Origin: Minisyncoccota bacterium
Lineage (GTDB): Bacteria > Patescibacteriota > Minisyncoccia > Phycocordibacterales > JAACPR01
Direction: 5' to 3'
Assembly (NCBI GenBank): GCA_036516995.1
Contig: DATDYW010000056.1
Location: 1 to 30,672 of the forward strand
DNA: 30,672 nt
Position numbers and translations under genes: made by a program. This document shows, piece by piece, positions 488 to 25,124 of this stretch. Under the pieces are notes generated by a model. It saw only the letters and a program-made list of their open reading frames with translations. It had not been told where the DNA came from and did no database searches. Positions within the stretch are counted from its first letter, which is position 1, and the number at the start of each line of letters is the position of its first letter.

Positions 488-1573
488 CTAGCGGCCGCGG
501 AACCGATCGAGCCAGCCGAAAATTCCGTCGCTCTTTTTTTCGACGGGCGCGGCGACCGCTGCCGCCGCGGGGGTTGGCTGCTTTTCCGCTGCCGCGGCCG
601 ACGTCGGCGGAGCGGCCTCGTAGTGCGTCTCGACGCTCTGCTTCGCCGCGGCGACCCGCATCTCCCGCAGGAGCCGCCCCACGGTTACCTGCAGGTCGAA
701 CTCGCGGGGGATTTCCTCGATTGGTAGCACTCCGCGCTGCACGCCGGAGATAATTTCGATAACTAGGCTCGGCGGCTTGCCGCCGATGTCGGCAATCTTT
801 CCCTCGACGCGGCGGAGGGGGGCGTAGACGTCGGCCAGCCGCTTGGCGTTCTGGATTGCCGCCTCAAACTCGGCGGGGCCGAACGACTTTCGCTCTGCTC
901 TCGGCGCGGCCGGCGCGCCGACCACGGGCGACGGTGCCTCGGCGGAGGCTGCCGTTTTTCCTCCGACAAAAGGTGCTCCTGCTTCCGGCTGACGCGGCCC
1001 TTGCTCCGGTTTGGTAGGCCGAGGCGCCGCTTTCGCGGGCGCCGCTTTGGCGTCTGGGAGGTTGAGCCAGCGCTTCGGCTCGGCGGGGTCTTGCCCGGGC
1101 GGAACAACCTTTAATCCCTCCTCTTTTTCTCTCTCCCCGAGAGACTGCGGCCTTAGCGCCCGACGCTTGAGCGCGTTTTCTGTTTGTCGCGCGGCGCTCT
1201 TCACGAACGCACCCTTTCGCTCGGGTGTCATCTCGCGCAGCTCGCGCTTCTCGAGGTGCCCGTCGCCGCCGGCGTCGAAGGAGAGGCGTCGACGTCGCTT
1301 GATCTCGGGGTCTGTCTTGGGCAGAGCGGTCATAGCGCCCACGAGTCTCTCCGTGTTCAGGGTACTCAAATCGAGTGGCGCGTCGGCCGCAATTCTTTGG
1401 TCAGACGGCTCACCGGCCGCCCCTGTTTCTTCCGGTACTACCACCGCCGTCTGATTGGCCGACTTCGGGCGCTTCGCCCTAGGTGTCGGCTGGGAGAGCC
1501 GCGCCGAGGTCCGTGTCTCTGCTCCCGCGAGTGCCGCGCCCTTCGCCCCTGGCTCGTTTTCCTGATTTTGCAT
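488..1573 (-). CDS. Hypothetical protein (~361 aa), Pro/Ala-rich, with an amphipathic C-terminal tail
   Basis: Track ORF 488..1582. The ATG at 1582 overlaps a TAGAAT -10 box (1581-1586, minus strand), so the ATG at 1573 (7 nt after the box) is preferred. Ends ...SDGIFGWLDRFRGR. Confidence 0.7.
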   Translation of the reverse strand: MQNQENEPGAKGAALAGAETRTSARLSQPTPRAKRPKSANQTAVVVPEETGAAGEPSDQRIAADAPLDLSTLNTERLVGAMTALPKTDPEIKRRRRLSFDAGGDGHLEKRELREMTPERKGAFVKSAARQTENALKRRALRPQSLGEREKEEGLKVVPPGQDPAEPKRWLNLPDAKAAPAKAAPRPTKPEQGPRQPEAGAPFVGGKTAASAEAPSPVVGAPAAPRAERKSFGPAEFEAAIQNAKRLADVYAPLRRVEGKIADIGGKPPSLVIEIISGVQRGVLPIEEIPREFDLQVTVGRLLREMRVAAAKQSVETHYEAAPPTSAAAAEKQPTPAAAAVAAPVEKKSDGIFGWLDRFRGR

Positions 1574-1656
1574 AGTTGCCATTCTACGCGCATTTGGCAG
1601 GTTCGGCCAAAGATTGAAACTGGCCCAGGAAAATGCATAATGGCCCAGCCCTCAAT

Positions 1657-1739
1657 GCCCAGGTGGTGGAATTGGTATACACACACGCTTGAGGTGCGTG
1701 ACCGTTTACGGTATGCGGGTTCAAGTCCCGCCCTGGGCA
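1657..1739 (+). tRNA. tRNA-Leu (anticodon GAG)
   Basis: Acceptor GCCCAGG/CCTGGGC, D-loop GGAATTGGTA, anticodon stem CACGC/GCGTG with loop TTGAGGT, long variable arm, T-arm GCGGG-TTCAAGT-CCCGC, discriminator A; CCA not encoded. Confidence 0.96.
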
Positions 1740-1952
1740 CACAAGAAATCACCCCGCCGCCGAGGCGGGGTGATTCTTTTGATGTGTGTGCCCAGGGCGG
1801 GACTTGAAAGCCGGAGCGCACCGGAGCGAAGCGGAGGTCTTCGACGAGCTTCCCAGCGAGGAGAAGGCGCGAGCCGGGGTCGCGGGTACTTAGGTTTTTG
1901 GATTCGCAGAGCGAATTCAAAAAACTTAGTAACCCGTGACCAAGTCCCGCCC
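1720..1952 (+). repeat. tRNA-anchored structured element, copy 1 (arms match tRNA-Leu)
   Basis: Perfect 24-bp inverted repeat of the tRNA 3' end (1720-1743 / 1785-1808), then a 132-nt core (1809-1940) shared with the tRNA-His element, then a third T-arm copy CAAGTCCCGCCC (1941-1952). Confidence 0.9.
1747..1780 (+). terminator. Terminator-like hairpin after tRNA-Leu
   Basis: AATCACCCCGCC / GGCGGGGTGATT 12-bp stem followed by CTTTT. Confidence 0.65.
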
Positions 1953-2058
1953 CTCATAAAAATTTTATCGGTCCTTTACCCGCAAATTGTTTTGCTGGGG
2001 CGATGCTCGCGTCGAGAAAAACTCCGCCCCTTCTCGGTTCTGCTACACTCTCCACGCC

Positions 2059-3336
2059 ATGTGGGAACCCTTCGCCTTCGATCGGCGCGACGTCGCTGGC
2101 GTGCCCGTGTTCGTTCGCGCCGTGCCCTGGGTCACGGGCCACGCGGCAATTCGCGTTGCCTTCTCCGTCGGGGCGCGCTCCGACGTCGAGGGCCGCGAAG
2201 GGCTGGCGCACTTCTTCGAGCACCTGCCCTTCGACGGCTGCGAGGGGGCGCCGACCCACGACGACGTCGAGACCGTCCGCCACACGCTCTTCATGGACAC
2301 GCTCAACGCTTTCACCGGCATGGAGTACACCGTCTTCGTGGGCCGCTGCCGGACGGAGCGCATTCCCGAGGCGCTCGACTTCTTCCGCCGCCTCGTCTGG
2401 AAGCCAATCCTCGATCCCGCAGAGCTCGAGCGCGAGCGGCAGGTTATCGTCCGTGAAATTTGGCGCCTCTACGGCACGCCGAAGGACCTCGAGCTCGTTC
2501 GGCTGGAGTGGGCCGACCTGATGCCGCCGGGCCACCGCTTCGCCACACACTTTCGCCCGCTCGGGCGACCGGAGACCGTCGGCGCCGTGACCCGCGAGGA
2601 GCTCCTGGCTTTCCACCGCGAGCGTTACGTCCGCGAGAACCTCTCGATTTTCGTTGTCGGCGACGCGCCGGCCGAGGTGCTCGACCCGGCGATCGAGGCG
2701 CTCGTTGCCGCCGTGCCGAGCGGCGCCGCGTTCCCGGCGCCGACGCTCATTGTCGAGCCCCAGCACCCGCCCGTGCCGCTGCGCGACATTTCCTACAAAG
2801 AGTTCTTCGGCGTCTCGGAGGAGGCGCGCCCGAAGAACACCGAGGTCGAGTGGAGCCGCATCGTGCCGCGGCCGACGTCCGAGGGCCAGCTCCGGCTGGC
2901 GGGCCGCCTGCTCTCGCGCGTCCTCAAGGACGCGATTCGCGGGAAGTTCGGCGCCACCTACAGCGTCTCGACGTACGTAGACATCTTCCGCGACCTGGCG
3001 CTCGTCGGCGCCCACACCAAGGTTGAGCCTGCGCGGGCCGACGAGGTGCGCGCCCACGCCGAGGCGACGCTGGGAACGCTACTCGCCGCCGCGCCCGAGC
3101 ACGCGGCGAAGTTCGGCGAGGTGCGCCAGGCGATGCTCGACCGCGCCGAGGCCGAGGAGTTCCACACCGGCCGAATCGCCGACGACGCCGCGACCGACTG
3201 GGTGGTGGACGGCAAGATTGCGCTGAAGTCGGTGACGGTCGCCGACGTGCGTGCCGCTACCTACGCGGGAACCTGCCGGCTGCTCGCCGACAGCCTGCAG
3301 CCGGACAAGTGCCAGCGGCTGATCGTCCGACCGTAA
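2059..3336 (+). CDS. M16 family (insulinase/pitrilysin-like) zinc peptidase
   Basis: Inverted zinc motif HFFEH, LNAFTG..YT, ERERQVIVRE and IRGKFGATYSV (M16 C-domain). Start ATG 2059 lies 9 nt after TGCTACACT. Confidence 0.88.
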   Translation: MWEPFAFDRRDVAGVPVFVRAVPWVTGHAAIRVAFSVGARSDVEGREGLAHFFEHLPFDGCEGAPTHDDVETVRHTLFMDTLNAFTGMEYTVFVGRCRTERIPEALDFFRRLVWKPILDPAELERERQVIVREIWRLYGTPKDLELVRLEWADLMPPGHRFATHFRPLGRPETVGAVTREELLAFHRERYVRENLSIFVVGDAPAEVLDPAIEALVAAVPSGAAFPAPTLIVEPQHPPVPLRDISYKEFFGVSEEARPKNTEVEWSRIVPRPTSEGQLRLAGRLLSRVLKDAIRGKFGATYSVSTYVDIFRDLALVGAHTKVEPARADEVRAHAEATLGTLLAAAPEHAAKFGEVRQAMLDRAEAEEFHTGRIADDAATDWVVDGKIALKSVTVADVRAATYAGTCRLLADSLQPDKCQRLIVRP

Positions 3337-3343
3337 AAAGGAA

Positions 3344-3361
3344 AAGCCCCAATCGGGGCTT
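3344..3361. terminator. Short hairpin after the M16 gene
   Basis: AAGCCCC-AATC-GGGGCTT with an A-rich 5' flank. Confidence 0.5.
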
Positions 3362-3371
3362 CTAGGGTGCG

Positions 3372-3563
3372 CTACGCGGCGCACTCGGTTCGCCCGAGGC
3401 AGGGAACCGAGTGGTAGGCGTTGCAGCTGCGGCACCAGGCCTTCCGGTGGGGCACGCCCGTGTCGCGCGTCTTGTCGACGGCGGATTCGCGGGCGAGGCG
3501 AGGCTTGGCGAACGGCCGGAGAGATCCGGTGCTGGCGGTGTGGGAAGAGCAGTCGCAGACCAT
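3372..3563 (-). CDS. Possible small Cys/His-rich protein (63 aa)
   Basis: MVCDCSSH...WCRSCNAYHSVPC; a metal-binding-like spacing fills an otherwise empty gap, but competing overlapping ORFs exist. Confidence 0.35.
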   Translation of the reverse strand: MVCDCSSHTASTGSLRPFAKPRLARESAVDKTRDTGVPHRKAWCRSCNAYHSVPCLGRTECAA

Positions 3564-3673
3564 TCCCCGCCATTCTCGGTCTGGCTCTCTCGGGCGTCAA
3601 TCGCTAGCCGCACCGCGCCTCATACTGTAGATTGCGGCTCGAATGTTCTTGTCCCCGCCCGGTCCCAATTTAC

Positions 3674-3746
3674 GGTGCCTATGGTGTAACGGTTAACACT
3701 CGAGCTTGTGGAGCTCGCAATATGGGTTCGACTCCCATTAGGCACC
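3674..3746 (+). tRNA. tRNA-His (anticodon GTG) with encoded G-1
   Basis: G-1 at 3674 opposite C73; acceptor GTGCCTA/TAGGCAC; anticodon stem CGAGC/GCTCG with loop TTGTGGA; T-arm ATGGG-TTCGACT-CCCAT; CCA not encoded. Confidence 0.96.
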
Positions 3747-3966
3747 CTCGCTCCGATCCGAACCCGGCGCCGCGCCGGGTTTCGGCATTGGAGGAGCGAG
3801 GGTGCCTAATGGGAGTCGAAAGCCGCAGCGCACCGGAGCGAAGCGGAGGTCCGGCCCGAGCTTCCCAGCGAGGGCCGGGCGCGAGGCGGGGTCGCGAGCA
3901 CTTAGCCGAATGGGATTCGCAACGCGAATTCCACGAGGCTTAGTGACTCGTGACCGATTCCCATTA
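3727..3966 (+). repeat. tRNA-anchored structured element, copy 2 (arms match tRNA-His)
   Basis: Perfect 28-bp inverted repeat (3727-3754 / 3793-3820) around an inner hairpin, a 134-nt shared core (3821-3954) and a third T-arm copy CGATTCCCATTA (3955-3966; 11/12 match to the tRNA). Confidence 0.9.
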
Positions 3967-3987
3967 CGTACCTGCTATCCTCTCACC

Positions 3988-4527
3988 ATGTTTCTCGCAG
4001 AAATTCGTGGAACAAAAATCCACCTGAGGCCCTACCAGCCCTCCGACATTTCCGCTTGGCAGCGGTGGGACGTTGACCCAGAGGTGCAGAGGCATATGCC
4101 CGGCTCTCTCAACGCTCCCGTTTCGGATGAAAAGCAGCTCGAGTACCTAAAAGAGTGCGAGGGCGAGCGGGACGGGGTCTACTGGAGCGTAGCCAGCAAT
4201 GGCGGCGACGTCCTCATCGGCAGCGTTGCCATCACCGGCATCAGTGACGGAGCGGGAGAGCTCGGAGTCGTGATTGGAGAGAAAGATTACTGGGGGAAGG
4301 GAATCGCGCTGGAGGCTGTGACGTTGGCGTGCGGCGCGGCGCTCAGGGAACTTAACCTCAAGAGCGTCTTCGCCGAGTACGAGGAGGGAAACGTTGGTGC
4401 TCAGAAAGCGCTCGAGAAGGCTGGTTTTGTCAGAGAGGCTTTTCTGGAGGGCTCACGCGATAAAGACGGATTGAAGATAAACACTTTCAAATACGTCCTG
4501 ACTAACAAATTGCAAAACTCTGACTGA
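3988..4527 (+). CDS. GNAT family N-acetyltransferase (RimJ/RimL-like)
   Basis: IHLRPY..SD, ELGVVIGEKDYWGKGIA (acetyl-CoA motif A), N..AQKALEKAGFVREA. ATG 3988 is 6 nt after TGCTATCCT; the track's upstream extension runs through the tRNA element. Confidence 0.9.
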   Translation: MFLAEIRGTKIHLRPYQPSDISAWQRWDVDPEVQRHMPGSLNAPVSDEKQLEYLKECEGERDGVYWSVASNGGDVLIGSVAITGISDGAGELGVVIGEKDYWGKGIALEAVTLACGAALRELNLKSVFAEYEEGNVGAQKALEKAGFVREAFLEGSRDKDGLKINTFKYVLTNKLQNSD

Positions 4528-4530
4528 GGT

Positions 4531-4605
4531 TTGGAATGTAAATCGCCACGCCACTTCTCTCAAAAACAGTTCTGACTTCCTCCGCGACGGCACCCTAACG
4601 AGAAT
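4531..4605. repeat. Direct repeat R1 (family of three)
   Basis: TTGGAATGTA...CTCTCAAA..CAG..CTGACTTCCTCC.CGACGGCACCC.AACGAGAAT; homologous to 7081-7140 and 8149-8221. Confidence 0.88.
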
Positions 4606-4647
4606 AGAACTAGAAAACGCTTCTTGGGGAAGCGTTTTCTAGTTCTA
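4605..4647. terminator. 19-bp perfect hairpin between the convergent GNAT and TrmB-like genes
   Basis: TAGAACTAGAAAACGCTTC / GAAGCGTTTTCTAGTTCTA, 5-nt loop. Confidence 0.65.
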
Positions 4648-4676
4648 GCCGCTGAAACTTTTAGATGTCCTGTCGT

Positions 4677-5441
4677 TTAGGCCGTGAGCCACATTCTCTT
4701 AAAGACCTCGCGCATATTGGATGCGAGCATTCGGTCGTTGATTTCGACGAGGTAGTAAGGGTGCTGCTGCGTCACAATCATCACGATGCGGTCTCCGCCG
4801 ACCCACACCGAAGCGCTGAAGGACACGTCCTTAGAGAACTTGATGTCACGCACCGGGCGAGGCTGCTTCGACGCGAGAGCCCGTTCCGCTGGGGCATCGT
4901 TGCCCACGAGTCGCATCTTCGTCTTGCTGCTGAAGGGCTGCTTCCAGTACCAGCTGAGCCACTTCTGGTATGCCTCCAGGAAGGTGTAGTCCTGGATTCC
5001 CCACCACGTGCCGTCTAAGGCGAGCACGTCTGCCTGCCACTGCTCAATGTTTTCGTAGAGGAACTCCTCGAGCCTGTGCTCCTCGACAAAGCGAATCTTG
5101 GGCACGGGGTGGGTCTTGCCCGCAGAGATGTTCGCCGCCTCTGCCGCGACCTCTCGGAGCATCGCCGTCTTCTCGTCGAGTGCGCGTCGGTCACGCTCGG
5201 CCGCTTTCTCAAGGCTCGCGGGGGAGATGGGCGAAAAGCGGACGCTCTTGCCGCTAATATCAGCCTCTACGAAACCTTTGGACTGGAGGGACTGGGCCAC
5301 GCTGTAGACGGTGGCTCGATTTACCTTGGTGGTTTTGGACAGCTCCGCCGGAGTCGCCGGGCCGCTCCGCAGCAGGGCCAGGAAAATGGAAATCTCCTTG
5401 TCGTGCAGGCCGAGCCGACCGAGCGTTTCTTTTAGCGCCAC
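4677..5441 (-). CDS. TrmB-family winged-HTH transcriptional regulator
   Basis: LGLHDKEISIFLALLRSGPATPAELSKTTKVNRATVYSVAQSLQSKGFV is a TrmB-type N-terminal HTH, followed by a coiled segment and a C-terminal effector-type domain; GTG start. Confidence 0.85.
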   Translation of the reverse strand: MALKETLGRLGLHDKEISIFLALLRSGPATPAELSKTTKVNRATVYSVAQSLQSKGFVEADISGKSVRFSPISPASLEKAAERDRRALDEKTAMLREVAAEAANISAGKTHPVPKIRFVEEHRLEEFLYENIEQWQADVLALDGTWWGIQDYTFLEAYQKWLSWYWKQPFSSKTKMRLVGNDAPAERALASKQPRPVRDIKFSKDVSFSASVWVGGDRIVMIVTQQHPYYLVEINDRMLASNMREVFKRMWLTA

Positions 5442-5467
5442 GCCCGAAGGCTACTCCGTTGGTAGGT

Positions 5468-5710
5468 ATTCGTCAACAATTGTTGGACAGTCATCCACAC
5501 CTAGATGAAGGTGGCCTACTATATTTTCGGAGTAGGATACGGCTGACCAAACACCGCAATTACTCTTATGGAGGCTCCAGCTGAAGAAAACAAGGGCAGA
5601 GAGACTGAGTTCGCTCGTCTCTACGAAACACTCCTGCCAGAGGCTCAGGCAGCAGCCTCAACTGAGAAGGGGGTGCAGGATTCAGTTGTCGAAGATTCGT
5701 CAACAATTGT
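5468..5710. promoter_or_regulatory. Two identical 16-bp sites ATTCGTCAACAATTGT (5468-5483 and 5695-5710), candidate operators
   Basis: Exact direct repeat in the divergent intergenic region; the first copy extends into the palindrome CAACAATTGTTG, the second lies 10 nt upstream of the -35 box. Confidence 0.6.
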
Positions 5711-5720
5711 CCAACATATC

Positions 5721-5749
5721 TTGACAGATAGCAAAAAAGAGAATACAAT
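5721..5749 (+). promoter_or_regulatory. Sigma70-type promoter for the radical SAM gene
   Basis: TTGACA (5721-5726), 17-nt spacer, TACAAT (5744-5749). Confidence 0.8.
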
Positions 5750-5774
5750 TGAAGACAAATCAAGACCTATAAAA

Positions 5775-7007
5775 ATGAAAACTTATAACTATGAAGCTGA
5801 GGTCCTCAATCCTGAAGACCCTGCCCTGAATGCAGAGGCTGGAGCCGCTTTCAGTCGTTTTGTGGAAGCGTGGGCCGATAAAGTTGACCTGCGCGACCCC
5901 GCCTCGATTGAAGCTGCCCACGAAGCTGCCAGTGAAGCTGGCCTGTTCTCGCTTGCCGAGCGAGCCCGCGACTACTACTTCGGCAAGAACGTCCATACCT
6001 ACGGCGTGGTCTACCTCTCCGACCTCTGCGTCGAGGGGTGCGAGTTCTGCCCAGCCGGAATCCACAACCGCGAATACAAGTCGCGGACGCTCTCCACGAA
6101 AGAGCTCGTCGCAGACATCGCGGCGGTGCTCCTCCAGGGCCACGAGAAGGTCTGCTTCCTCCAGGCGAACTGGAAAGAGGCGGCGTTCCTTGCCAAGGTG
6201 GGCCACTGGCTGCCGGAGGTCATCAAGACGTGCGGACCGCTCGGCCTCAAGGAGCTCATCCTGAACGTGCAGACGCTCTCGGAGGCGGGCTACCGCAAGG
6301 TGTTCGCTATTCGGGATGCGGTTGACCCCGCCTTCACCATTCAGGTGCGGACGTTCCAGGAAACCTACGACCGCGAGGCCTACGCTGCGCTCATCCCAGA
6401 GGCCAAAGGTGGGGTTAAGCACGACTTCACCCAGCGCCGTGACACCCAGAAGGTGGCGTGGAAAGCGGGGGCTGACTCGGTTGGCCTCGGCGTCCTGTTC
6501 GGCCTCTCGCCGAAGCCGCTCGAAGAGCTCCAAAAGCTCATTGAGCACGCGAAGGAGCTCCAGTCGGAGGGGGCTAAGGTAGTGCGAATCTGCCTACCGA
6601 CCGCTCACTCGGTTGATGGCCTGAAAACCAGCATTCCCTTCGACCTCCCAACGTCCGACAAGGACTACCCGCACTTCGCGGAGTTGGTCTACAGCCTGGC
6701 CCGTCTCGCCTTGCCCGAAATGAATTGGGTTATGAGCGAACGGGACCCGGCCGAAGTTCGGGACCAGCTCGTGAAGTATGCGTCGGAGACGACGGTCGGA
6801 GTTCACCCCGGTGTTGGCGACAACCTGGACCTCTTCCTTGCGAAAGAGCGGGGTCTGCACTTCGAGCAGGCGACGGTCTACTCGGAAGAGCCGGACCAGT
6901 ACGTCGAGCGGATGGCCAAGAGTGGTTACACCGTGAAAATGGACGCGTCGACAGAGCGTCGGGAGAAAATCCGGAACACCATCCACAGTCTCGTTCTCGT
7001 TGGCTAA
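5775..7007 (+). CDS. Radical SAM enzyme, ThiH/HydG/NosL-like (aromatic amino-acid lyase type)
   Basis: YFGKNVHTYGVVYLSDLCVEGCEFC (CxxxCxxC), QETYDREAY, KHDFTQR, GADSVGLGVLFGL match ThiH/HydG-family blocks. No C-terminal Cys motif. Start moved to ATG 5775, downstream of the promoter. Confidence 0.82.
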   Translation: MKTYNYEAEVLNPEDPALNAEAGAAFSRFVEAWADKVDLRDPASIEAAHEAASEAGLFSLAERARDYYFGKNVHTYGVVYLSDLCVEGCEFCPAGIHNREYKSRTLSTKELVADIAAVLLQGHEKVCFLQANWKEAAFLAKVGHWLPEVIKTCGPLGLKELILNVQTLSEAGYRKVFAIRDAVDPAFTIQVRTFQETYDREAYAALIPEAKGGVKHDFTQRRDTQKVAWKAGADSVGLGVLFGLSPKPLEELQKLIEHAKELQSEGAKVVRICLPTAHSVDGLKTSIPFDLPTSDKDYPHFAELVYSLARLALPEMNWVMSERDPAEVRDQLVKYASETTVGVHPGVGDNLDLFLAKERGLHFEQATVYSEEPDQYVERMAKSGYTVKMDASTERREKIRNTIHSLVLVG

Positions 7008-7012
7008 ACAGA

Positions 7013-7039
7013 GCCGCCCATCTTCGGATGGGCGGTTTT
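7013..7039 (+). terminator. Intrinsic terminator after the radical SAM gene
   Basis: GCCGCCCATC-TTCG-GATGGGCGGT followed by a T run. Confidence 0.75.
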
Positions 7040-7080
7040 CCTTCCCTAGAGAATAGTGGCGAGCGGGGTGGGGCAGAGCA

Positions 7081-7140
7081 TTGGAATGTAGAAAGTTGAT
7101 TCGTTTCTCCTCTCAAACCCAGCCCTGACTTCCTCCACGA
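7081..7140. repeat. Direct repeat R2
   Basis: 31 nt (7110-7140, CTCTCAAACCCAGCCCTGACTTCCTCCACGA) identical to 8173-8203; TTGGAATGTA start shared with R1. Confidence 0.88.
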
Positions 7141-7158
7141 TGTCCACATATTTTAAAT

Positions 7159-7218
7159 CGTGAAAATACACAGTTTTGCGCATATTTTCACGGTTATATT
7201 GATAAAACAGTGAAAATA
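7159..7218. promoter_or_regulatory. Inverted repeat upstream of the Fic gene, candidate operator
   Basis: CGTGAAAATA (7159-7168) / TATTTTCACG (7183-7192), plus a third half-site GTGAAAATA (7210-7218). Confidence 0.45.
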
Positions 7219-7234
7219 GCTATACTTGAGAGGC

Positions 7235-8131
7235 GTGGCAAAAACATCTGCGGTCTTCGGCAAGATCAGCGCCCTTCGGGAGAGGTACTACAAGGCATTG
7301 CCGGGGAAAGAGGCGCTCGTCGCGCTCCTTGGCGAAGCGGAGGTCGCGGAGCAGGTGTACAACTCGAACGCCATCGAGAACAGCACGCTGAGCCTCGAGG
7401 AAACCGAAAAGATACTCCTCCAGATTGATCTCGATCGGTATATTTCCGAGAGAGAGATATTCGAGGCAAAAAACCTCGCCCGGGTCGTGTCCTACATCGA
7501 CAAGCGGGCCAAAGAGCACGAGCTCCTCCCCGACGTCATTCTGTCGCTCCACAAGATGCTGATGTCGAACATTCGCGACGAGATTGCCGGGAGATTCCGC
7601 GAGGACGGCGAGTACGTCCGCGTCGGGAGCCACGTAGCTCCGGCCCCAAAAGAGATTAGCGGGGGTCTCGAGAAAATGTTTTCGGAGTACAACGCCGCGA
7701 GCCACGAAAACATCATCAAGCGTATCGCGCGGCTGCACCTCGCCTTCGAGCGCCTCCACCCGTTCAACGACGGGAACGGGCGCATAGGGCGCGTCATCAA
7801 TAACTACCTGCTGATCCGGGAAGGTTTTGTTCCCATAAACATTAAGTTCATCGACCGGAAGAGGTACTACGAGGCCCTCAAGGAGTTCGACGAAAGAGGC
7901 GCGACCGCCACCATGGAAGAAATAGTCGGCAGGGCGCTCACCAACAGCTACCACAAGCGCCTCGCCTACCTAGAGGGCAAGAAAATTGTCACGCTCTCCG
8001 ACTACGCGAAGGGCAATAAAATCTCTCACTCCAATCTTATTAACAAAGCCGGTCGGCAAACCATCGAAGCTTTTCTGGAGAAGGGGGTTTGGAAGATCGC
8101 CGAAGACTTTAAGAATGGGCCGGGGCGGTAG
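7235..8131 (+). CDS. Fic family protein (class II-like), with a C-terminal HTH-like extension
   Basis: Canonical HPFNDGNGRIGR motif; N-terminal SNAIEN fits the (S/T)xxxE(G/N) inhibitory helix; GTG start at 7235 after GAGAGG. Confidence 0.92.
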   Translation: MAKTSAVFGKISALRERYYKALPGKEALVALLGEAEVAEQVYNSNAIENSTLSLEETEKILLQIDLDRYISEREIFEAKNLARVVSYIDKRAKEHELLPDVILSLHKMLMSNIRDEIAGRFREDGEYVRVGSHVAPAPKEISGGLEKMFSEYNAASHENIIKRIARLHLAFERLHPFNDGNGRIGRVINNYLLIREGFVPINIKFIDRKRYYEALKEFDERGATATMEEIVGRALTNSYHKRLAYLEGKKIVTLSDYAKGNKISHSNLINKAGRQTIEAFLEKGVWKIAEDFKNGPGR

Positions 8132-8148
8132 CGGCGGGGGAGAGCGCG

Positions 8149-8221
8149 GGAATGTAAACAGCCACCCCACCTCTCTCAAACCCAGCCCTGACTTCCTCCA
8201 CGACGGCACCCAAACGAGAAT
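8149..8221. repeat. Direct repeat R3
   Basis: GGAATGTA...CTCTCAAACCCAGCCCTGACTTCCTCCACGACGGCACCCAAACGAGAAT; matches R1 over its full length and R2 over 31 identical nt. Confidence 0.88.
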
Positions 8222-8256
8222 CGCCTTTTTAATTCTCAATTTGCTACTATCCTCCC

Positions 8257-8736
8257 GTGCCGCGCCTCTCCCTCCTCCTCGCGCTCGTCGCCGCGCTCCT
8301 GGTGCTCCTCGGCTTTTCCCTTGCCTGGCGTCCTGCGTCGGCACCCGCCGTACCGCTCGCGGCGGCTACGAGCACGTCCCCGACCGCGACCACCACGCCG
8401 ATCCCGTCGCCGGTCGTTCCTCCGCCAGCCACCACCACGCCGCCGAAGCCGTTCACCCAGATAGTCGGCGGGCCAATCGTCGCGCTCGGTCCCTCCGGCC
8501 TCTCGCTCACCGCCAGGCGCGAGGCGCCGTGGGTCGCGACCTTCGCCAGCACCACCAAGTTTCAGAAGTACACCGAGGACGGCGCGGCGCTCGTGCCGAT
8601 GAAGCGGTCCGAGCTCTACATCGGGATGCATATTCGGGTAATAGGCACGCTGCTGGCCGACGGCACGATTGCCGCGCGCACGGTCACGTTCGGCAACCCA
8701 GCTCCGCAGCCGGGAAGCCAGACCCTCAAGCTCTAG
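8257..8736 (+). CDS. Secreted or membrane-anchored protein with a Pro/Thr linker and a DUF5666-like beta domain
   Basis: N-terminal hydrophobic helix, PT-rich linker, GPIVAL...TTKFQK...IGMHIRVIG...GTIAARTV pattern; GTG 6 nt after TGCTACTAT. Confidence 0.7.
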   Translation: MPRLSLLLALVAALLVLLGFSLAWRPASAPAVPLAAATSTSPTATTTPIPSPVVPPPATTTPPKPFTQIVGGPIVALGPSGLSLTARREAPWVATFASTTKFQKYTEDGAALVPMKRSELYIGMHIRVIGTLLADGTIAARTVTFGNPAPQPGSQTLKL

Positions 8737-8818
8737 CTCGGGGCAGTTGCGTTCCTGGTGCCACTGCCACTACGATGTAGGCGTTCCCGTTCACGCTTAC
8801 CCCGCTACCACCCTTTCA

Positions 8819-9508
8819 ATGCAAGCCTCTCATTCCCGCGTCGCCCCCGGCTTCGGTCTCATCGTCGCGCTCGTCGTCATTGCCGTCGTCCTCCTCGGCG
8901 GCGGCTACTACTACTCGGCCAACCGCGCCCCGGCTCCCGCGGACGCGGGCGACACCGCGGCATCGCCGCGGAGCCTGCGCGCTCTCGTCGGCCTCGGCCA
9001 GAGCCTGACCTGCTCGTTCTCCAAGACCGACGCGGAGGCCACCAACGCCGGCACCATCTTCGTCGCCGGCGACAAGATGCGCGGCGATTTCACAATGACG
9101 GCCAGCAGCAGCGGCACCGTCGCCTCGCACATGATCAAGATGGGTGACGACATCTACGTCTGGTCCGATGCCCTGGCTGGCCAGGGATTGAAGATGCGCG
9201 CCACCGCCGGTGCGGAAGGTAGCTCGGCGCAGGCCGACCAGTCTGTCGACTGGGACCAGGAAATGGATTACGACTGCGGTAGCTGGCGAGCCGACGACTC
9301 CAAGTTCGCGCTGCCCGCGGGCGTGAAGTTCATGGATTTCACCGGCGGCGCTAGCGCCTCGGCGGGCGCAGCCGGTGCCGCCGGCATCGGCGGTTCAGTT
9401 GGCGCCAGCGCCTCGGCCGGTGTCGGCGCGGGTGCCAGCCAGTGCGCCGCCTGCGACAGCGTGCCGGAGGCCTCGCGCGCGCAGTGCAGGGCGGCGCTCG
9501 GCTGCTAG
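8819..9508 (+). CDS. Exported hypothetical protein with a pilin-like N-terminus and a Cys-rich C-terminus
   Basis: MQASHSRVAPG|FGLIVALVVIAVVLLGGGYYY, a beta-rich core, a Gly/Ala linker, then CAAC...C...C at the C-terminus. Confidence 0.75.
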   Translation: MQASHSRVAPGFGLIVALVVIAVVLLGGGYYYSANRAPAPADAGDTAASPRSLRALVGLGQSLTCSFSKTDAEATNAGTIFVAGDKMRGDFTMTASSSGTVASHMIKMGDDIYVWSDALAGQGLKMRATAGAEGSSAQADQSVDWDQEMDYDCGSWRADDSKFALPAGVKFMDFTGGASASAGAAGAAGIGGSVGASASAGVGAGASQCAACDSVPEASRAQCRAALGC

Positions 9509-9534
9509 CTGGTTCGGAAAAATAAAAGAAAAGA

Positions 9535-9567
9535 AAAAGGCCGCTCGCGTTTCGCGAGCGGCCTTTT
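9535..9567. terminator. Bidirectional-type intrinsic terminator
   Basis: AAAAGGCCGCTCGCG-TTT-CGCGAGCGGCCTTTT. Confidence 0.75.
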
Positions 9568-9642
9568 CGATAGCACTACCTGTCAAATCCGCGAGACCCA
9601 GACGCACAGCCCGGACTCGCGAGCTCTGCTACAATTTCTCCC

Positions 9643-10083
9643 GTGACGCTCCGCGATTTCGATATCCGTCTGATTCACGCCTTCCGCTCGCTCTTCGAGC
9701 CGCTGGCCCGCTTCGGTCTCTTCCTCGTCTTCTTCTGGTTCGGAGCACTGAAGGTCGTCGGTCTCTCGCCGGCGAGCCCCTTGGTGCAGCAGCTCTTCGA
9801 GCGAACGATTCCGGTGATGGAGTTCGGCACCTTCATCGTGCTCTTCGGCGCGCTCGAGTGCCTGATCGGTCTCCTCTTCCTCTGGCGCGGCGCCGAGCGG
9901 GTGGCAATCCCGCTCCTCTTTGTACATATGGCGACGACGCTGGGGCCGCTCCTGCTCCTGCCCGAGGTCACCTGGACTGGGTTTATGGTGCCGACGCTCG
10001 AAGGGCAGTACATCATCAAGAACGTGCTGCTCGTTGCCGCGGCTGTGGGTATCGCCTCGCACCTCCACCCCATAAGAAAGTAG
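9643..10083 (+). CDS. DoxX/DUF417 (RclC/YkgB-like) membrane protein
   Basis: RFGLFLVFFWFGALKV, GALECLIGLLFL, GQYIIKNVLL; four hydrophobic segments; GTG 7 nt after TGCTACAAT. Confidence 0.82.
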   Translation: MTLRDFDIRLIHAFRSLFEPLARFGLFLVFFWFGALKVVGLSPASPLVQQLFERTIPVMEFGTFIVLFGALECLIGLLFLWRGAERVAIPLLFVHMATTLGPLLLLPEVTWTGFMVPTLEGQYIIKNVLLVAAAVGIASHLHPIRK

Positions 10084-10110
10084 TTGTAGGGAGAGTCTGT
10101 GCTTCTGCAA

Positions 10111-10224
10111 CGGGAGGCTCCATTCGGCGCGCAAAACGGTCTCGTACGCCTCGCTCTACATTCGTAGCGCGTCGGCTAGCGAGAACCGTTTTTCGCATCC
10201 AAATGTTGCCTCTGTGGTGATTCG
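10111..10224 (+). repeat. Structured palindromic repeat SR-A (~115 nt family)
   Basis: Starts CGGGAGGCTCCATTCG and ends GTGGTGATTCG; nested stems; homologous to 22394-22507 and 24998-25111. Confidence 0.88.
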
Positions 10225-10310
10225 ATTAGGACGAGTAATTTCAGAGGTGACAGTTGGAGCCGAAAACCGTTTCCGTGGTGACTCGTTTAAGGAAAGAAAA
10301 AAGAAACATG

Positions 10311-10343
10311 CAAGGGCCGCGCCGCTTTGCGGCGCGGCCCTTG
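10311..10343. terminator. 15-bp GC-rich hairpin
   Basis: CAAGGGCCGCGCCGC-TTT-GCGGCGCGGCCCTTG. Confidence 0.55.
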
Positions 10344-10377
10344 CGTCTCTGCTGACCGGTGTTAGGGTCTCATTGAA

Positions 10378-11340
10378 ATGCACTCAAAAAATAAGAAATA
10401 CACAGTCAAATCCTCTCGGGGTTTCCCCGCACACTGGTCGGTCGGCGCCATCATTGAGCGGGCCGGCAAGTACCTGATGATTGACCGCGCGTTCGAGCCC
10501 CTCGGCCTCGCCGGTGTTGCCGGTCACGTCGACGAGGAGGCTGACGGAAGCCACGAACCCCTCGACGTCGCCATCGCCAGGGAAATCAAGGAGGAGACCG
10601 GCCTCTCGGTCTCTGCCATCCACGCCATCCCGTCGATCTACGGCGTCGAGGTTCTCTGGAACCACTGCCGCAGCGCCGGTAGCCACACCTGGTGGCTGTT
10701 CCGCGCGTGGGTGACGGATGTCTCCGGCGGAGCAGGCACCGGCGAGCCGAAGTTCGACGCGATCGAAACGAAAGGCGGCGGCTGGCACACGCCAGACGAG
10801 CTCGCCGCCGCCAACCTCGAGCCCGTCTGGCGCGAGTGGTACGAGCGGCTGGGAATTATTCCCCGGAAGCCGCGCGTCACCATTTGTGGTTCGATGGCGT
10901 TCGCCGCAGAAATGGCGGAGGCGGCAACGCTGCTCCGCGGGCGGGGCTGGGAAGCTACCGCGCCCGCGCTCAAGGCTCTCGGCGCCGACGGCACCGTCAC
11001 CTCCTTCACCGAGGTACTGCGCAGCCGCGGCTTCGACGCCGTTCCGGACGACGACCCGTTCTGGGCCGCGAAGCGGGACGCCATCCTCGAGCACTTCCGC
11101 TGGATCGACTGGTGCGAGGTCGCGCTCGTTTGGAACCAGGAGAAGCGCGGCGTGCCCGGCTACATTGGCAGCAACACGATGATGGAGATCGGCTGGGCCA
11201 CCGGCGTCGGCAAGAAGGTGGTGGCGCTCAACCCCCTCAACCACGTCGTCGCCGGCTTCGAGGAGGCGAAAGCCTGCCTCTCGGGCTGCCTCGACGGCGA
11301 CCTGAACGGTCTCGAGGACGCGCTCGAGAAAGTCGGCTGA
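10378..11340 (+). CDS. Fusion of a NUDIX hydrolase and a nucleoside 2-deoxyribosyltransferase-like domain
   Basis: N-half: AGHVDE...AIAREIKEETGL (Nudix box with a short insertion). C-half: VTICGSM...HFRWIDWCEVALVWN...YIGSNTMMEIGWA...KKVV (NDT-like fold with the conserved Glu). Confidence 0.78.
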   Translation: MHSKNKKYTVKSSRGFPAHWSVGAIIERAGKYLMIDRAFEPLGLAGVAGHVDEEADGSHEPLDVAIAREIKEETGLSVSAIHAIPSIYGVEVLWNHCRSAGSHTWWLFRAWVTDVSGGAGTGEPKFDAIETKGGGWHTPDELAAANLEPVWREWYERLGIIPRKPRVTICGSMAFAAEMAEAATLLRGRGWEATAPALKALGADGTVTSFTEVLRSRGFDAVPDDDPFWAAKRDAILEHFRWIDWCEVALVWNQEKRGVPGYIGSNTMMEIGWATGVGKKVVALNPLNHVVAGFEEAKACLSGCLDGDLNGLEDALEKVG

Positions 11341-21694: not shown

Positions 21695-22393
21695 ATGTCC
21701 ACCGAGACCAAGAGCTCCGTCGCGATTCCGGCCGCCATCGTCGTCGCCGGCCTCATCATTGCCGCCGCCGTTTTCTTCACCCGCGGCGCGGCGCCCGCTG
21801 GCACCACCGCCGCCAAGCCCGCGGCCGCGGGCGACCCCAAGGCGGTCGCCGCCGTCACCGCCGCCGACCACATCCGCGGCAGCCTCGATGCGCCGGTGAA
21901 GGTTGTCGAGTACTCCGACATCGACTGCCCGTTCTGCCAGCGCGTCCACCCGACGCTCAAGCAGCTTCAGGCGGAGTACGGCGACAAGGTCGCCTGGGTG
22001 TACCGCCACAATCCAATCACCGGTCTTCACCCAAACGCCGAGACAAAAGCTATTGCAACGGAGTGCGTTGCTAAACTTGCGGGCAATGATGCCTTCTGGA
22101 AATTTCTAGATGCAGTTACCGAAGATACAGCTCCAGGTCGCAACGACCTCACCCGTCTCCCGGCCTTGGCTGCAGAGGCAGGCGTGACCGACGCCGCGGC
22201 GTTCAAGGAGTGCCTGGATAGCAAAGAGGGACTTTCAAAGATTAAGGCCGACATGGCGAACGCAGCCGCGACCGGCGGCCGCGGCACGCCGTGGACCATC
22301 GTGGTTAGCAAGGACGGGAAGGAGGCGGTGGCGGTATCCGGAGCGCAGCCCATCGATGCCTTCAAGGCGGCGGTAGATTCGATTCTCAAATAA
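21695..22393 (+). CDS. DsbA-family thioredoxin-fold protein (membrane anchored)
   Basis: N-terminal TM helix, GSLDAPVKVVEYSDIDCPFC, GTPW cis-Pro loop, GAQP. Confidence 0.92.
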   Translation: MSTETKSSVAIPAAIVVAGLIIAAAVFFTRGAAPAGTTAAKPAAAGDPKAVAAVTAADHIRGSLDAPVKVVEYSDIDCPFCQRVHPTLKQLQAEYGDKVAWVYRHNPITGLHPNAETKAIATECVAKLAGNDAFWKFLDAVTEDTAPGRNDLTRLPALAAEAGVTDAAAFKECLDSKEGLSKIKADMANAAATGGRGTPWTIVVSKDGKEAVAVSGAQPIDAFKAAVDSILK

Positions 22394-22507
22394 CGGGAGG
22401 CTCCATTCGCCGCGCAAACCGCTCCTCCGCCCCTCGCCGTACAGGAGTACGTCGTCGGGGACGGTCGGGGCGGTTTTCGCTGGCGACTGTCGCCTCCGTG
22501 GTGACTC
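22394..22507 (+). repeat. Structured palindromic repeat SR-B
   Basis: Begins immediately after the DsbA stop with CGGGAGGCTCCATTCG and ends GTGGTGACTC. Confidence 0.88.
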
Positions 22508-24432: not shown

Positions 24433-24506
24433 CTAGCCCGCAAACCAACACCGAGTGTTAAAGGCCCTAAACACTCGGTGTTGGTTTGCGGGCTAGTGGT
24501 GACTCG
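24433..24506. repeat. 27-bp perfect hairpin followed by TGGTGACTCG
   Basis: CTAGCCCGCAAACCAACACCGAGTGTT (24433-24459) / AACACTCGGTGTTGGTTTGCGGGCTAG (24470-24496). Confidence 0.85.
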
Positions 24507-24978: not shown

Positions 24979-24997
24979 ATTTAAAGTAGGAGATACA

Positions 24998-25111
24998 CGG
25001 GAGGCTCCATTCGGGCCGCAAACCGTGCCGCTACGCCTCGGAGTACATTCGTACACCGTCGGCTAGGCGTCAGCGGTTTTCGGCGCCGACTGTCGCCTCC
25101 GAGGTGATTCG
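24998..25111 (+). repeat. Structured palindromic repeat SR-C
   Basis: CGGGAGGCTCCATTCG...GAGGTGATTCG, 19 nt after the rplK stop. Confidence 0.88.
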
Positions 25112-25124
25112 AGAATTTGTGTCA

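Follow-up and report, generated by a model that had tools for sequence, protein, structure and literature searches.

The 30,672-nt stretch of Minisyncoccota DNA analysed here (the window) probably carries, at the 3′ end of its histidine tRNA gene, a tandem array of three small cassettes, and the ~68-nt repeat that recurs in it, named E, would, as far as sequence can tell, be the junction formed by a large serine recombinase (LSR) specific for that tRNA. E would combine an element-side attachment-site arm of ~60 nt with a 7–8-bp core that exactly matches the terminal bases of tRNA-His. With every further integration at the tRNA, older cassettes would move outward and an E would be left behind, and mini-cassettes of one or two genes that have an E but no LSR may be captured or exchanged by an LSR in trans, comparable to SCC elements without ccr or to integron cassettes. 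Upon excision a longer isoform of the LSR would be restored; catalysis of attP × attB recombination by the LSR is a predicted activity. The literature searched yielded no description of a tRNA-His-anchored LSR cassette system. Little is understood of how Patescibacteria, with their tiny genomes and few recognized mobile elements, come by accessory genes; the E arrays point to a phylum-wide, site-specific route, in which cassettes stacked behind tRNA-His differ from strain to strain within one population.

The array behind tRNA-His

An earlier note on this DNA had read the segment as tRNA-His, a small element, a GNAT gene, a first repeat, a TrmB-like gene with a radical SAM gene, a second repeat, a Fic gene and a third repeat, and gene and repeat calls confirm this layout (Table 1). 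Its statement that the repeats all share one orientation, each just 3′ of a + strand gene, holds, the distance from gene stop to repeat start being 6–76 nt; the TrmB-like gene, however, is on the minus strand, and the directions of the cassette genes are mixed. Three features lie beyond what that note described: the anchor on the tRNA-His 3′ terminus, the apparent identity of the repeat with the C-terminal coding region of a recombinase, and its phylum-wide occurrence.

Table 1. Features of the array, in window coordinates; bit scores and E-values of the repeats come from a DNA profile built on copies in other genomes
Feature	Position	Strand	Basis or details
tRNA-His(GTG)	3675..3747	+	ARAGORN, Rfam
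Gene-less mini-element	3748..3966		inverted repeat I7, direct repeat D3
Cassette 1 cargo, GNAT acetyltransferase	3988..4527	+	Pfam Acetyltransf_3, 7.9e-26
E1 (R1)	4533-4605	+	52 bits, E-value 6e-15; conserved arm 4533-4588; core GGCACCC 4589-4595; tRNA-His-trailer-like TAACGAGAAT 4596-4605
Strong hairpin, bidirectional-terminator type	4606..4647		between convergent GNAT/E1 and TrmB-like gene
Cassette 2 cargo, TrmB/MarR-type HTH regulator	4677..5441	-	Pfam TrmB, 4.4e-15; divergent from radical SAM gene
Cassette 2 cargo, 479-aa protein	5568..7007	+	weak Pfam Radical_SAM match, 1.8e-4, under family cut-off
E2 (R2)	7083-7149	+	50 bits, E-value 3e-14
Fic cassette left end, AT-rich promoter/operator-like region	7150..7225	+	sequence
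Cassette 3 cargo, Fic (AMPylase-type) protein	7226..8131	+	Pfam Fic, 5.3e-23
E3 (R3)	8149-8221	+	38 bits, E-value 1e-10; arm 8149-8204; core GGCACCC 8205-8211; tRNA-His-trailer-like AAACGAGAAT 8212-8221

Compared with one another within the window, the three repeats are same-direction copies of one element. The similarities reported earlier were found again: E1 and E3 match over 73 nt, at 86% identity, and E2 and E3 share 31 identical nt (7110–7140 = 8173–8203). The core common to E1 and E3 equals the final 7 nt of tRNA-His (3741–3747), which is the anchor, or attL side, of the array, and E3 is its outermost junction, of attR type, adjoining the chromosomal flank. E2 has a 3-nt insertion in its arm and a degenerate right end, TGTCCACAT (7141–7149), without the tRNA-like GGCACCC block present in E1 and E3. 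The antisense frames read GAVAEEVRTVFERSGVAIYIP... in E1 (4594–4505), ..IVEEVRAGFERRNESTFYIP.. in E2 and LGAVVEEVRAGFERGGVAVYIP... in E3 (8213–8112). At 38–52 bits the window copies score below most others (55–71 bits), and the 705-kb genome to which they belong holds no further copy.

Between the tRNA and the first cassette, at 3748–3966, is a separate genome-wide repeat that combines a hairpin with an exact antisense copy of the tail of the tRNA (3793–3820) and a shared core; most of its ~30 matches in the genome are 56–107 nt downstream of tRNA genes. The GNAT gene, the region 5440–5980 and the Fic gene had looked less GC-rich than tyrS/nrdA, and the GC content of the array is 0.47–0.62 (0.55–0.60 for the GNAT gene) against 0.65–0.73 in the flanks. 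The hairpin at 4606–4647 folds at −40.8 kcal/mol (z = −2.9 on the + strand and −3.9 on the − strand), and a second, terminator-like one at ~7011–7041 is 3′ of the radical SAM gene. The left end of the Fic cassette includes a palindrome, CGTGAAAATA (7159–7168) / TATTTTCACG (7183–7192), and the Fic protein has an intact HPFNDGNGRIGR motif together with an N-terminal inhibitory-type motif, SNAIEN. Fic homologues with 48–74% identity sit within E arrays of other genomes, in which no counterparts of the GNAT, TrmB and radical SAM genes were found.

The repeat and the large serine recombinase

The 7–8 nt at the end of E duplicate the 3′ terminus of the tRNA-His at its locus, and across 35 loci they co-vary with the cognate tRNA (GTCGCCC, CGCCC, CCCCC and GGCACCC, for example), with the tRNA trailer reappearing downstream of E. 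Within a genome, attL and attR have CACCC(C)A alone in common, which is the tRNA-His end (G048, G064, G307, G219 and G137). The linked LSRs have Resolvase, Recombinase and Zn_ribbon domains (Pfam), and their genes adjoin tRNA-His or E in L078, L123, L232, L246 and L132–L146. In autonomous elements the LSR gene is convergent with tRNA-His and its stop codon is inside the antisense of that tRNA gene (attL), while E marks the opposite end of the island, 6–17 kb off (attR). Such overlap occurs in 12 of the 15 closest LSR loci, and in 8 of the 12 it is 11 nt long, with protein tails that end in ...WGG, ...WGA or ...WGD at the stop.

Where an LSR gene abuts E its frame runs on through E for ~30 additional codons, and three sequences (L232, L246 and P0157) have this long form, ...LILEWG-AVVEDVRTVFERRNDATIYIP... 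up to the stop codon. With the frame continuing in this way, attP would lie within the 3′-terminal part of the LSR gene, and E would be its attR/attP arm. Outside its tRNA-matching end E, read antisense (GAVVEDVRTVFERRNDATIYIP...), has codon-type conservation: entropies at the three codon positions are 0.60, 0.43 and 1.09, the third exceeding the other two (p = 1.3e-5), and Arg switches between AGA and CGA are seen. The conserved part of E thus appears to encode the C-terminal tail of the LSR, which would account for codon-like conservation in an element that has no start codon, and a search for a recombinase gene ending in or next to the repeat, proposed earlier, leads to an LSR that has the repeat as its final ~30 codons. 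In an AlphaFold2 model of the long form the tail is uninformative (pLDDT 27–41). E is enriched in genomes with a His-type LSR (8/12 versus 36/289, p = 4e-5), related genomes not being independent in this count. One protein, P0041, was considered as an LSR fragment and rejected as weakly supported (hhalign E = 4e-4, probability 34%; BLASTP not significant).

That the recombinase would act in trans, with none in the window, had been suggested from the letters. There is no LSR in the window, and no cognate His-type LSR was found in the assembly of this genome, which is 93% complete; the array is therefore an orphan, and any recombinase would act on it in trans. The one serine recombinase of the genome (C51) has 36% identity to the His-type over its N-terminal 329 residues and has neither a tRNA nor E at its 3′ end. 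A single tyrosine recombinase (Phage_integrase match) is on contig C21, away from the array.

Distribution in the phylum and variation in one population

E was matched in 44 of the 301 genomes of the order, in 182 stretches from one-genome-per-species contigs and in 223 metagenome stretches. The nhmmer model has 32 rows, one of which is locus L029 of genome G280; that genome is counted among the 44, and no claim depends on it. The total for Patescibacteria is 262 copies at 159 loci, co-oriented within each locus without exception and forming arrays of up to 10 copies with a median spacing of 1151 nt. The cassettes between them, of ~1.15 kb, hold unrelated accessory genes. The last E is followed by tRNA-His in 55 of the 159 loci, always in the relative orientation of the window and never otherwise placed. 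Nearly all genes beside E are unrelated among 29 loci, as is the tRNA-proximal cargo in 35 loci, and 99 cargo proteins belong to 73 Pfam families; Fic, toxin-antitoxin genes, methyltransferases, NUDIX, GNAT, reverse transcriptases and transporters are among the cargo types, with 79% of cargo ORFs sharing one direction. Looked for genome-wide, as had been advised, the repeat is confined to the array, and elsewhere it always separates variable, unrelated genes.

In G010, a relative from the same genus, a different gene comes after M16 and tRNA-His, the contig stopping after 0.85 kb, an arrangement suggestive of a variable site. A search at the DNA level for an empty site in relatives of G048 gave no match. 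The viral contigs searched contain no E and one distant LSR only, and so give no sign of a phage vehicle for E elements.

Within the population of this organism, the Fic cassette and the cassette of the TrmB and radical SAM genes are each present or absent as E-bounded units. Some of its contigs in public metagenomes are without exactly the former and others without exactly the latter, one repeat remaining, and these are the two kinds of variant that had been foreseen. In run X2 a 2341-nt contig (depth 25.5) connects 7109 with 8173 and another (depth 5.5) connects 4571 with 7125; two haplotypes are represented, GNAT-E-TrmB-radical SAM-E-flank (~25×) and GNAT-E-Fic (~5.5×), neither with all three cassettes. 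Fic has a depth of 6 versus 25 in X2 and of ~0 in X3–X5, where regions without contig cover are not counted as evidence by themselves, and X3 contigs match 7141–7227 and diverge beyond. The run data are contigs rather than reads, a form that cannot show circles or frequencies, or separate LSR action from homologous recombination. Another X2 contig, joining 3747 to 4557, was set aside, as it has 26 nt on its shorter side and is probably from another organism. These variants, along with the unrelated genes between E copies elsewhere, support the earlier idea of serially inserted cassettes; each cassette may regenerate its site through site-specific recombination, or homologous exchange between E copies may move the cassettes instead. 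The hybrid junction of E1 and E2 maps to a 12-nt tract, CTGACTTCCTCC, which is to the left of the 7-bp core, the expected place of LSR crossover, and may reflect homologous recombination or have been blurred by a strain SNP.

It is conceivable, if rather unlikely, that the E copies are scars of successive full-size LSR islands reduced by internal deletions, with the cassettes immobile and the variants due to RecA-type or slippage recombination between repeats. Both population junctions are in the longest tracts of inter-repeat identity (31 nt and 12 nt), the cognate LSR was not found in the genome, the core of E2 has decayed and the window copies score low. It also counts against LSR-mediated cassette movement that E2 is without a proper core and that E × E recombination is not a canonical LSR reaction (attP × attB or attL × attR). 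Yet no LSR remnants adjoin the E copies of arrays with as many as 10 ~1-kb cassettes, the cassettes next to the tRNA in almost all of 35 loci are LSR-free, unrelated singletons, and homologous Fic cassettes recur in different arrays and in both orientations. A tract of 12 nt is, moreover, short for RecA-dependent exchange.

Much less probable is an assembly artefact, in which different strain haplotypes, fused at the repeats, would have given a chimeric order of three cassettes. In favour of this, neither of the X2 haplotypes recovered has all three cassettes; against it, an X4 contig matching 6303–7228 with zero mismatches passes from the radical SAM gene through E2 into the left end of the Fic cassette, and run X1 contains 96% of the sampled words of 3600–8400. 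Even a chimeric order would leave the repeats and the polymorphic cassettes real.

Relation to known systems

Given its codon-type conservation and its position just 3′ of genes, E might be thought a functional unit itself, either the gene for a ~33-aa protein or an RNA or terminator element, and gene callers did predict 290 clusters of short proteins containing its motif. This is very improbable, as there is no conserved start codon, stops often directly precede the first conserved residue, the motif is always C-terminal, neither a consensus RNA structure nor an Rfam match was found, and the frame is fully accounted for as an LSR tail. A large conserved family ending in the motif was sought by HMM search of 1.84 billion representatives; the motif occurs at the C-terminus of short ORFs only (26–205 aa), which points to the tail of a gene rather than a gene. 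As a structured RNA E was also rejected: Rfam found two tRNAs only, single folds were not significant and RNAalifold gave no pairs.

The likeness to integron arrays, including CALINs, is one of layout and of probable role, and lies in co-oriented sites after cassettes of one or two promoter-poor genes, the orientation bias of the ORFs and the diversity of the cargo; CALINs are also orphan arrays without a nearby recombinase, and in both the newest cassette is presumably beside the anchor site. Integron attC sites consist of imperfect inverted repeats (R''/L''...L'/R'); they fold in single-stranded form and are conserved in structure rather than sequence. That E copies are such sites, recombined as folded strands by an IntI-type tyrosine recombinase, is already contradicted and can hardly be entertained, since RNAalifold gives 0 pairs on 21 copies, single-copy folds of E2 and E3 are no better than shuffles, E is conserved in sequence and codons rather than structure, its end is a tRNA-His core into which a serine recombinase gene runs, and no recurrent tyrosine recombinase is among the gene clusters near 79 arrays, the only one of this genome being on another contig. 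The absence of an attC-type fold agrees with the earlier judgement that this is a different cassette system, with a site conserved in sequence throughout the phylum and a serine recombinase in place of IntI.

The composite islands of SCC and SCCmec are alike in other respects. Their Ccr LSRs target rlmH, and their tandem units, bounded by short repeats, include pseudo-SCC elements thought to be moved in trans. Common to both are an LSR directed at the 3′ end of a single conserved gene, tandem accretion with co-oriented short repeats, accessory cargo, and recombinase-less units in the same array. Here, in contrast, the target is tRNA-His and the hosts are Patescibacteria, the cassettes are far smaller (median ~1.15 kb, one or two genes), arrays reach at least 10 units, and the repeat is as long as ~68 nt because it would be the C-terminal coding region of the recombinase itself.

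Tandem accretion at tRNA and tmRNA genes, with CIMEs, shares the anchor at a tRNA 3′ end, direct repeats with the last bases of the tRNA at the junctions, and, in CIMEs, non-autonomous units between att sites. The array of the window does begin at the 3′ end of tRNA-His, and its junctions repeat the terminal bases in direct orientation. Classically, however, such accretion involves tyrosine integrases, repeats that are tRNA fragments only and large islands, whereas the units here are mini-cassettes and the repeat is mostly putative recombinase coding sequence. An attachment site within the recombinase ORF is known from archaeal integrases of the SSV1 type (Fusellovirus), in which attP is inside the int gene; there too the target is a tRNA and integration splits the recombinase gene. 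SSV1 Int, though, is a tyrosine recombinase split near its N-terminus, while the serine recombinase here would lose only ~30 C-terminal codons and remain largely intact.

A more far-reaching reading of these sequences, offered tentatively and with considerable doubt, is that Patescibacteria have an integron-like capture platform based on an LSR in trans, by which mini-cassettes with nothing but the ~68-nt E would be taken up successively at tRNA-His. The last ~30 residues of the LSR would be lost upon integration and regained upon excision or where a further E adjoins the gene, and the two resulting isoforms could then set the direction of recombination without a separate directionality factor. 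If true, this would be a second solution to the integron problem, mechanistically independent of the first, and a state-dependent C-terminal tail is a testable idea for directionality control. These LSRs would recognize a short, known target, the tRNA-His end, with a compact attP readable from their own gene, and because of this attB/attP pairs should be predictable from sequence for many natural LSRs.

In G012 and G292 a reverse transcriptase gene abuts E, and E was considered as the template or variable repeat of a DGR; this was rejected, as the copies do not differ specifically at adenines and the reverse transcriptase is recurrent cargo.

A cassette array behind tRNA-His and its variation in one population

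The source genome (705 kb in 78 contigs, 93% complete and of Patescibacteria type) carries on the window contig, C56, three copies, R1 to R3, of a ~68-nt element, E (Table). The three-repeat layout behind tRNA-His, as first described from the sequence alone, stands, with R1 and R3 being 86% identical across 73 nt and R2 and R3 having 31 identical nt in common; the one correction is a minus-strand location for the TrmB-like gene. The array is indeed less GC-rich (0.47-0.62) than the sequence outside it (0.65-0.73), and a search of the whole genome gave no further copy of the repeat, so it is not scattered. At the ends of R1 and R3, GGCACCC precedes (T/A)AACGAGAAT, a sequence similar to tRNA-His trailers of relatives, and the right end of R2 is decayed. 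The arm of R3 ends in ...CTTCCTCCACGA and the Fic cassette starts with TGTCCACATATTTT.... An operator-like palindrome, CGTGAAAATA...TATTTTCACG, is present in the promoter region of that cassette (7159-7192).

Features of the window array and of related arrays
Feature	Position or locus	Remark
tRNA-His(GTG)	3675-3747	array start
Gene-less element, 220 nt	3748-3966	directly behind tRNA-His
GNAT gene	3988-4527	before R1
R1	4533-4605	after GNAT gene
Strong hairpin		between R1 and TrmB-type HTH gene
TrmB-type HTH gene	4677-5441	minus strand
479-aa protein, weak radical SAM match	5568-7007	before R2
R2	7083-7149	after the gene of the 479-aa protein
AT-rich promoter-like stretch		between R2 and Fic gene
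Fic gene	7226-8131	before R3
R3	8149-8221	array end
tRNA-matching E end	L095, L116	GTCGCCC
tRNA-matching E end	L083	CGCCC
tRNA-matching E end	L129	CCCCC
tRNA-matching E end	window	GGCACCC
LSR read-through	L232	...ATLILEWG-AVVEDVRTVFERRNDATIYIPAFYHTL (stop)
LSR read-through	L246	...NPELG-AVVEDVRTVFERRNDASIYIPAFYPTLDFTILQK (stop)
LSR read-through	P0157	...LILSWG-DVVEDVRTIFQLLNDTSIYIPAFA
Sister LSR subfamilies ending in other convergent tRNA genes	L145, L147, L148, L149, L155, L158, L159, L150	other genomes of the order
Reverse transcriptase genes, ~340 aa (RVT_1), adjoining E	L006 185-1168 (G012), L045 9753-10781, L064 12320-13330, six other loci	

Six public metagenome runs contain most of 3600-8400, and the contigs of four of them were aligned to 1500-10500. 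One contig of run X2 (2341 nt; depth 25.5, the main depth of the organism) joins 7109 to 8173 via the common 31 nt, so that exactly the Fic cassette is missing and one repeat is left; the depth of Fic is ~6 versus 25 in X2, and ~0 in X3-X5. Another contig of X2, with a depth of 5.5, joins 4571 to 7125 via 12 common nt, with the TrmB plus radical-SAM cassette missing and Fic present, and an X4 contig (6303-7228) carries the window's own junction of radical-SAM gene, R2 and Fic. At least three haplotypes therefore exist, differing by whole cassettes. Both variants that the earlier note had proposed to look for, one lacking R2-R3 and the other R1-R2 with a single repeat remaining, are thus represented in X2, which does not in itself prove the mechanism: as both junctions fall where the repeats share their longest identical tracts, one of them to the left of the 7-bp core, recombination of E copies by homology is a live alternative to site-specific exchange for these events. 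Contigs of X3 have 7141-7227 in common with the window and then differ, and so other cargo may share the left end of the Fic cassette.

Related arrays, their tRNA anchor and their cargo

A weak DNA match in the low-GC relative G012 differs from R1 only at antisense third codon positions, and the antisense reading of all copies is (L/W)GAVVE(D/E)VRT(V/I)FERRNDATIYIP.... In a search with a profile of this peptide, 44 of the 301 genomes sampled from the order gave a match (including one unpublished, G280), as did six of the 33 of the family, with no match in the two same-genus genomes. The profile also matches 223 metagenome stretches and, in a one-genome-per-species collection, 182 stretches labeled as Paceibacterota, Nomura-, Adler-, Kaiser-, Taylor-, Vogel-, Campbell- and Uhrbacteria and, by an automatic label, ‘Saccharibacteria’. 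With a DNA profile, 262 E copies were found in 159 loci, and within each locus all copies are co-oriented. The arrays have 2-10 copies with a median start-to-start spacing of 1151 nt (interquartile range 835-1756 nt), and most intervals between copies have one or two ORFs, 79% of which are in one direction.

tRNA-His follows the last E in 55 of the 159 loci, always on the same strand as in the window, and at none of the 159 is it placed otherwise relative to E. Between it and the first E there is usually one small locus-specific gene. The final 7-8 nt of E change from locus to locus together with the 3′ terminus of the local tRNA-His (Table), and at several loci the tRNA trailer sequence is found again after an E.

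Genes flanking E are unrelated from locus to locus, and the 99 cargo proteins have matches to 73 Pfam families. The most frequent family is Fic, followed by methyltransferases, GDSL lipases, NUDIX, APH, GNAT, ParE/YafQ-RelB and transporters; the Fic homologues of other arrays are 48-74% identical to that of the window and are in either orientation. RVT_1 reverse transcriptases are also recurrent cargo, and beside one of their genes there is, as judged by eye, a possible Avd-like small ORF. Their recurrence right beside E points to cassettes as carriers of diversity-generating-retroelement-like units. The reverse transcriptase match in the window's own genome is in two adjacent pieces (G000:C53:1802-2633), with neither tRNA nor E alongside in the stretches examined.

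A serine recombinase gene and the origin of E

One of the clusters of genes around the arrays is a large serine recombinase (LSR), whose domains are Resolvase, Recombinase and Zn_ribbon. At L078, in genome G048, the last residues of its ORF are ...LLLRWGG and the stop codon is within the antisense tRNA-His 3′ end. When the order was searched with this protein, the 15 closest homologues were at least 53% identical to it, and 12 of them overlapped a convergent tRNA-His, by 11 nt in eight cases. More distant subfamilies end within tRNA-Asp, -Asn, -Gln or -Tyr, the overlap with convergent tRNA-Asp being 9 or 39 nt, and so these CPR recombinases seem in general to carry attP within the 3′ end of their own gene.

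In G048, G064, G307, G219 and G137 an E and the LSR gene share a contig and are 8-17 kb apart, which gives the island the order tRNA-His, LSR gene on the minus strand, cargo and E; attL (tRNA side) and attR (E side) of one genome have only CACCC(C)A in common. The peptide frame of E is the LSR frame at the core (W-G), and where an LSR gene directly abuts E its ORF continues through it (Table), which gives a long form (...WG+AVVEDVRT...IYIP...) beside the short one (...WGG); in P0151, P0152 and P0154, which are integrated forms, the ORF ends after WG or enters antisense-tRNA codons (..ESNP..). From the common frame and the read-through, attP lies within the 3′-terminal part of the LSR gene, and E is this arm of the site together with the core. 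Such a coding origin explains why E conservation is 3-periodic (entropy 0.60, 0.43 and 1.09 at codon positions 1, 2 and 3; p = 1.3e-5), with AGA/CGA Arg switches among the copies. As the tail of a gene, E would be expected to have no start codon and a conserved stop, as it does, and the 290 predicted ‘proteins’ with the motif to be, as all are, short with the motif C-terminal. In an AlphaFold2 model of the long LSR form the tail has pLDDT 27-41, with nothing reliable on it.

E is present in 8 of 12 genomes with the LSR subfamily linked to tRNA-His versus 36 of 289 (p = 4e-5, with related genomes not being independent). Most E-bearing genomes, including the window's own 93%-complete assembly, lack this His-type LSR, and so their arrays are orphan. 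The only serine recombinase of the window's genome (G000:C51:3582-4556, a 469-aa frame) is 36% identical to the His-type, with no tRNA or E beside it in the stretches examined. The E of G307 (L021, G307:C1 at ~229.9 kb) is directly followed by the 3′-end remnant of a second LSR gene (reverse complement ...GCAACACTCATTCTCGAA); at this join, which is internal and attP-like, two stacked LSR elements meet.

Proposed mechanism, known systems and other repeats

Beyond the observed att anatomy, linkage to an LSR with an in-frame tail, co-oriented arrays, tRNA-His anchor and cassette polymorphism, integration would be by attP x attB crossover in the final bases of tRNA-His. The array would grow by further rounds of integration at the regenerated end of the tRNA, the newest cassette being beside the tRNA, and E-bearing cassettes without an LSR gene would be moved in trans. 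The longer LSR isoform may be restored by excision, or by abutting another E.

Among known systems the SCC composite island, which Ccr serine recombinases move, comes closest. Integron and CALIN arrays have a similar layout, but neither attC nor IntI membership was found for E arrays, in keeping with the earlier note's view that the repeats are not attC sites. SSV1-type archaeal tyrosine integrases likewise have the attachment site within the recombinase gene. No description of the E/LSR cassette system was found in the literature searched; added here are a tRNA-His family with a conserved 68-nt arm, the demonstration, from sequence comparison, that this arm is coding sequence for the C-terminus of the recombinase itself, and cassette-level polymorphism inside one population.

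A gene-less mini-element is present directly behind both tRNA-Leu (1741-1952) and tRNA-His in the window; in it a hairpin is combined with a perfect antisense copy of the last 24-28 nt of that tRNA and with a common ~140-nt core. It has ~30 matches in the 705-kb genome, no Rfam match and very high summed contig depth in metagenomes. Of its 12 best copies, 10 follow a tRNA gene (His, Glu, Ser, Val twice, Met, Ile, Trp, Gly and Leu) at a distance of 56-107 nt. Direct repeats of ~116 nt, with 75-78% identity and no meaningful Rfam match, occur in three copies (10109-10225, 22392-22507 and 24996-25112) with an inverted fragment at 10232-10269. A near-perfect 64-nt palindrome at 24433-24496 has 32-nt arms that are 94% complementary with no spacer.
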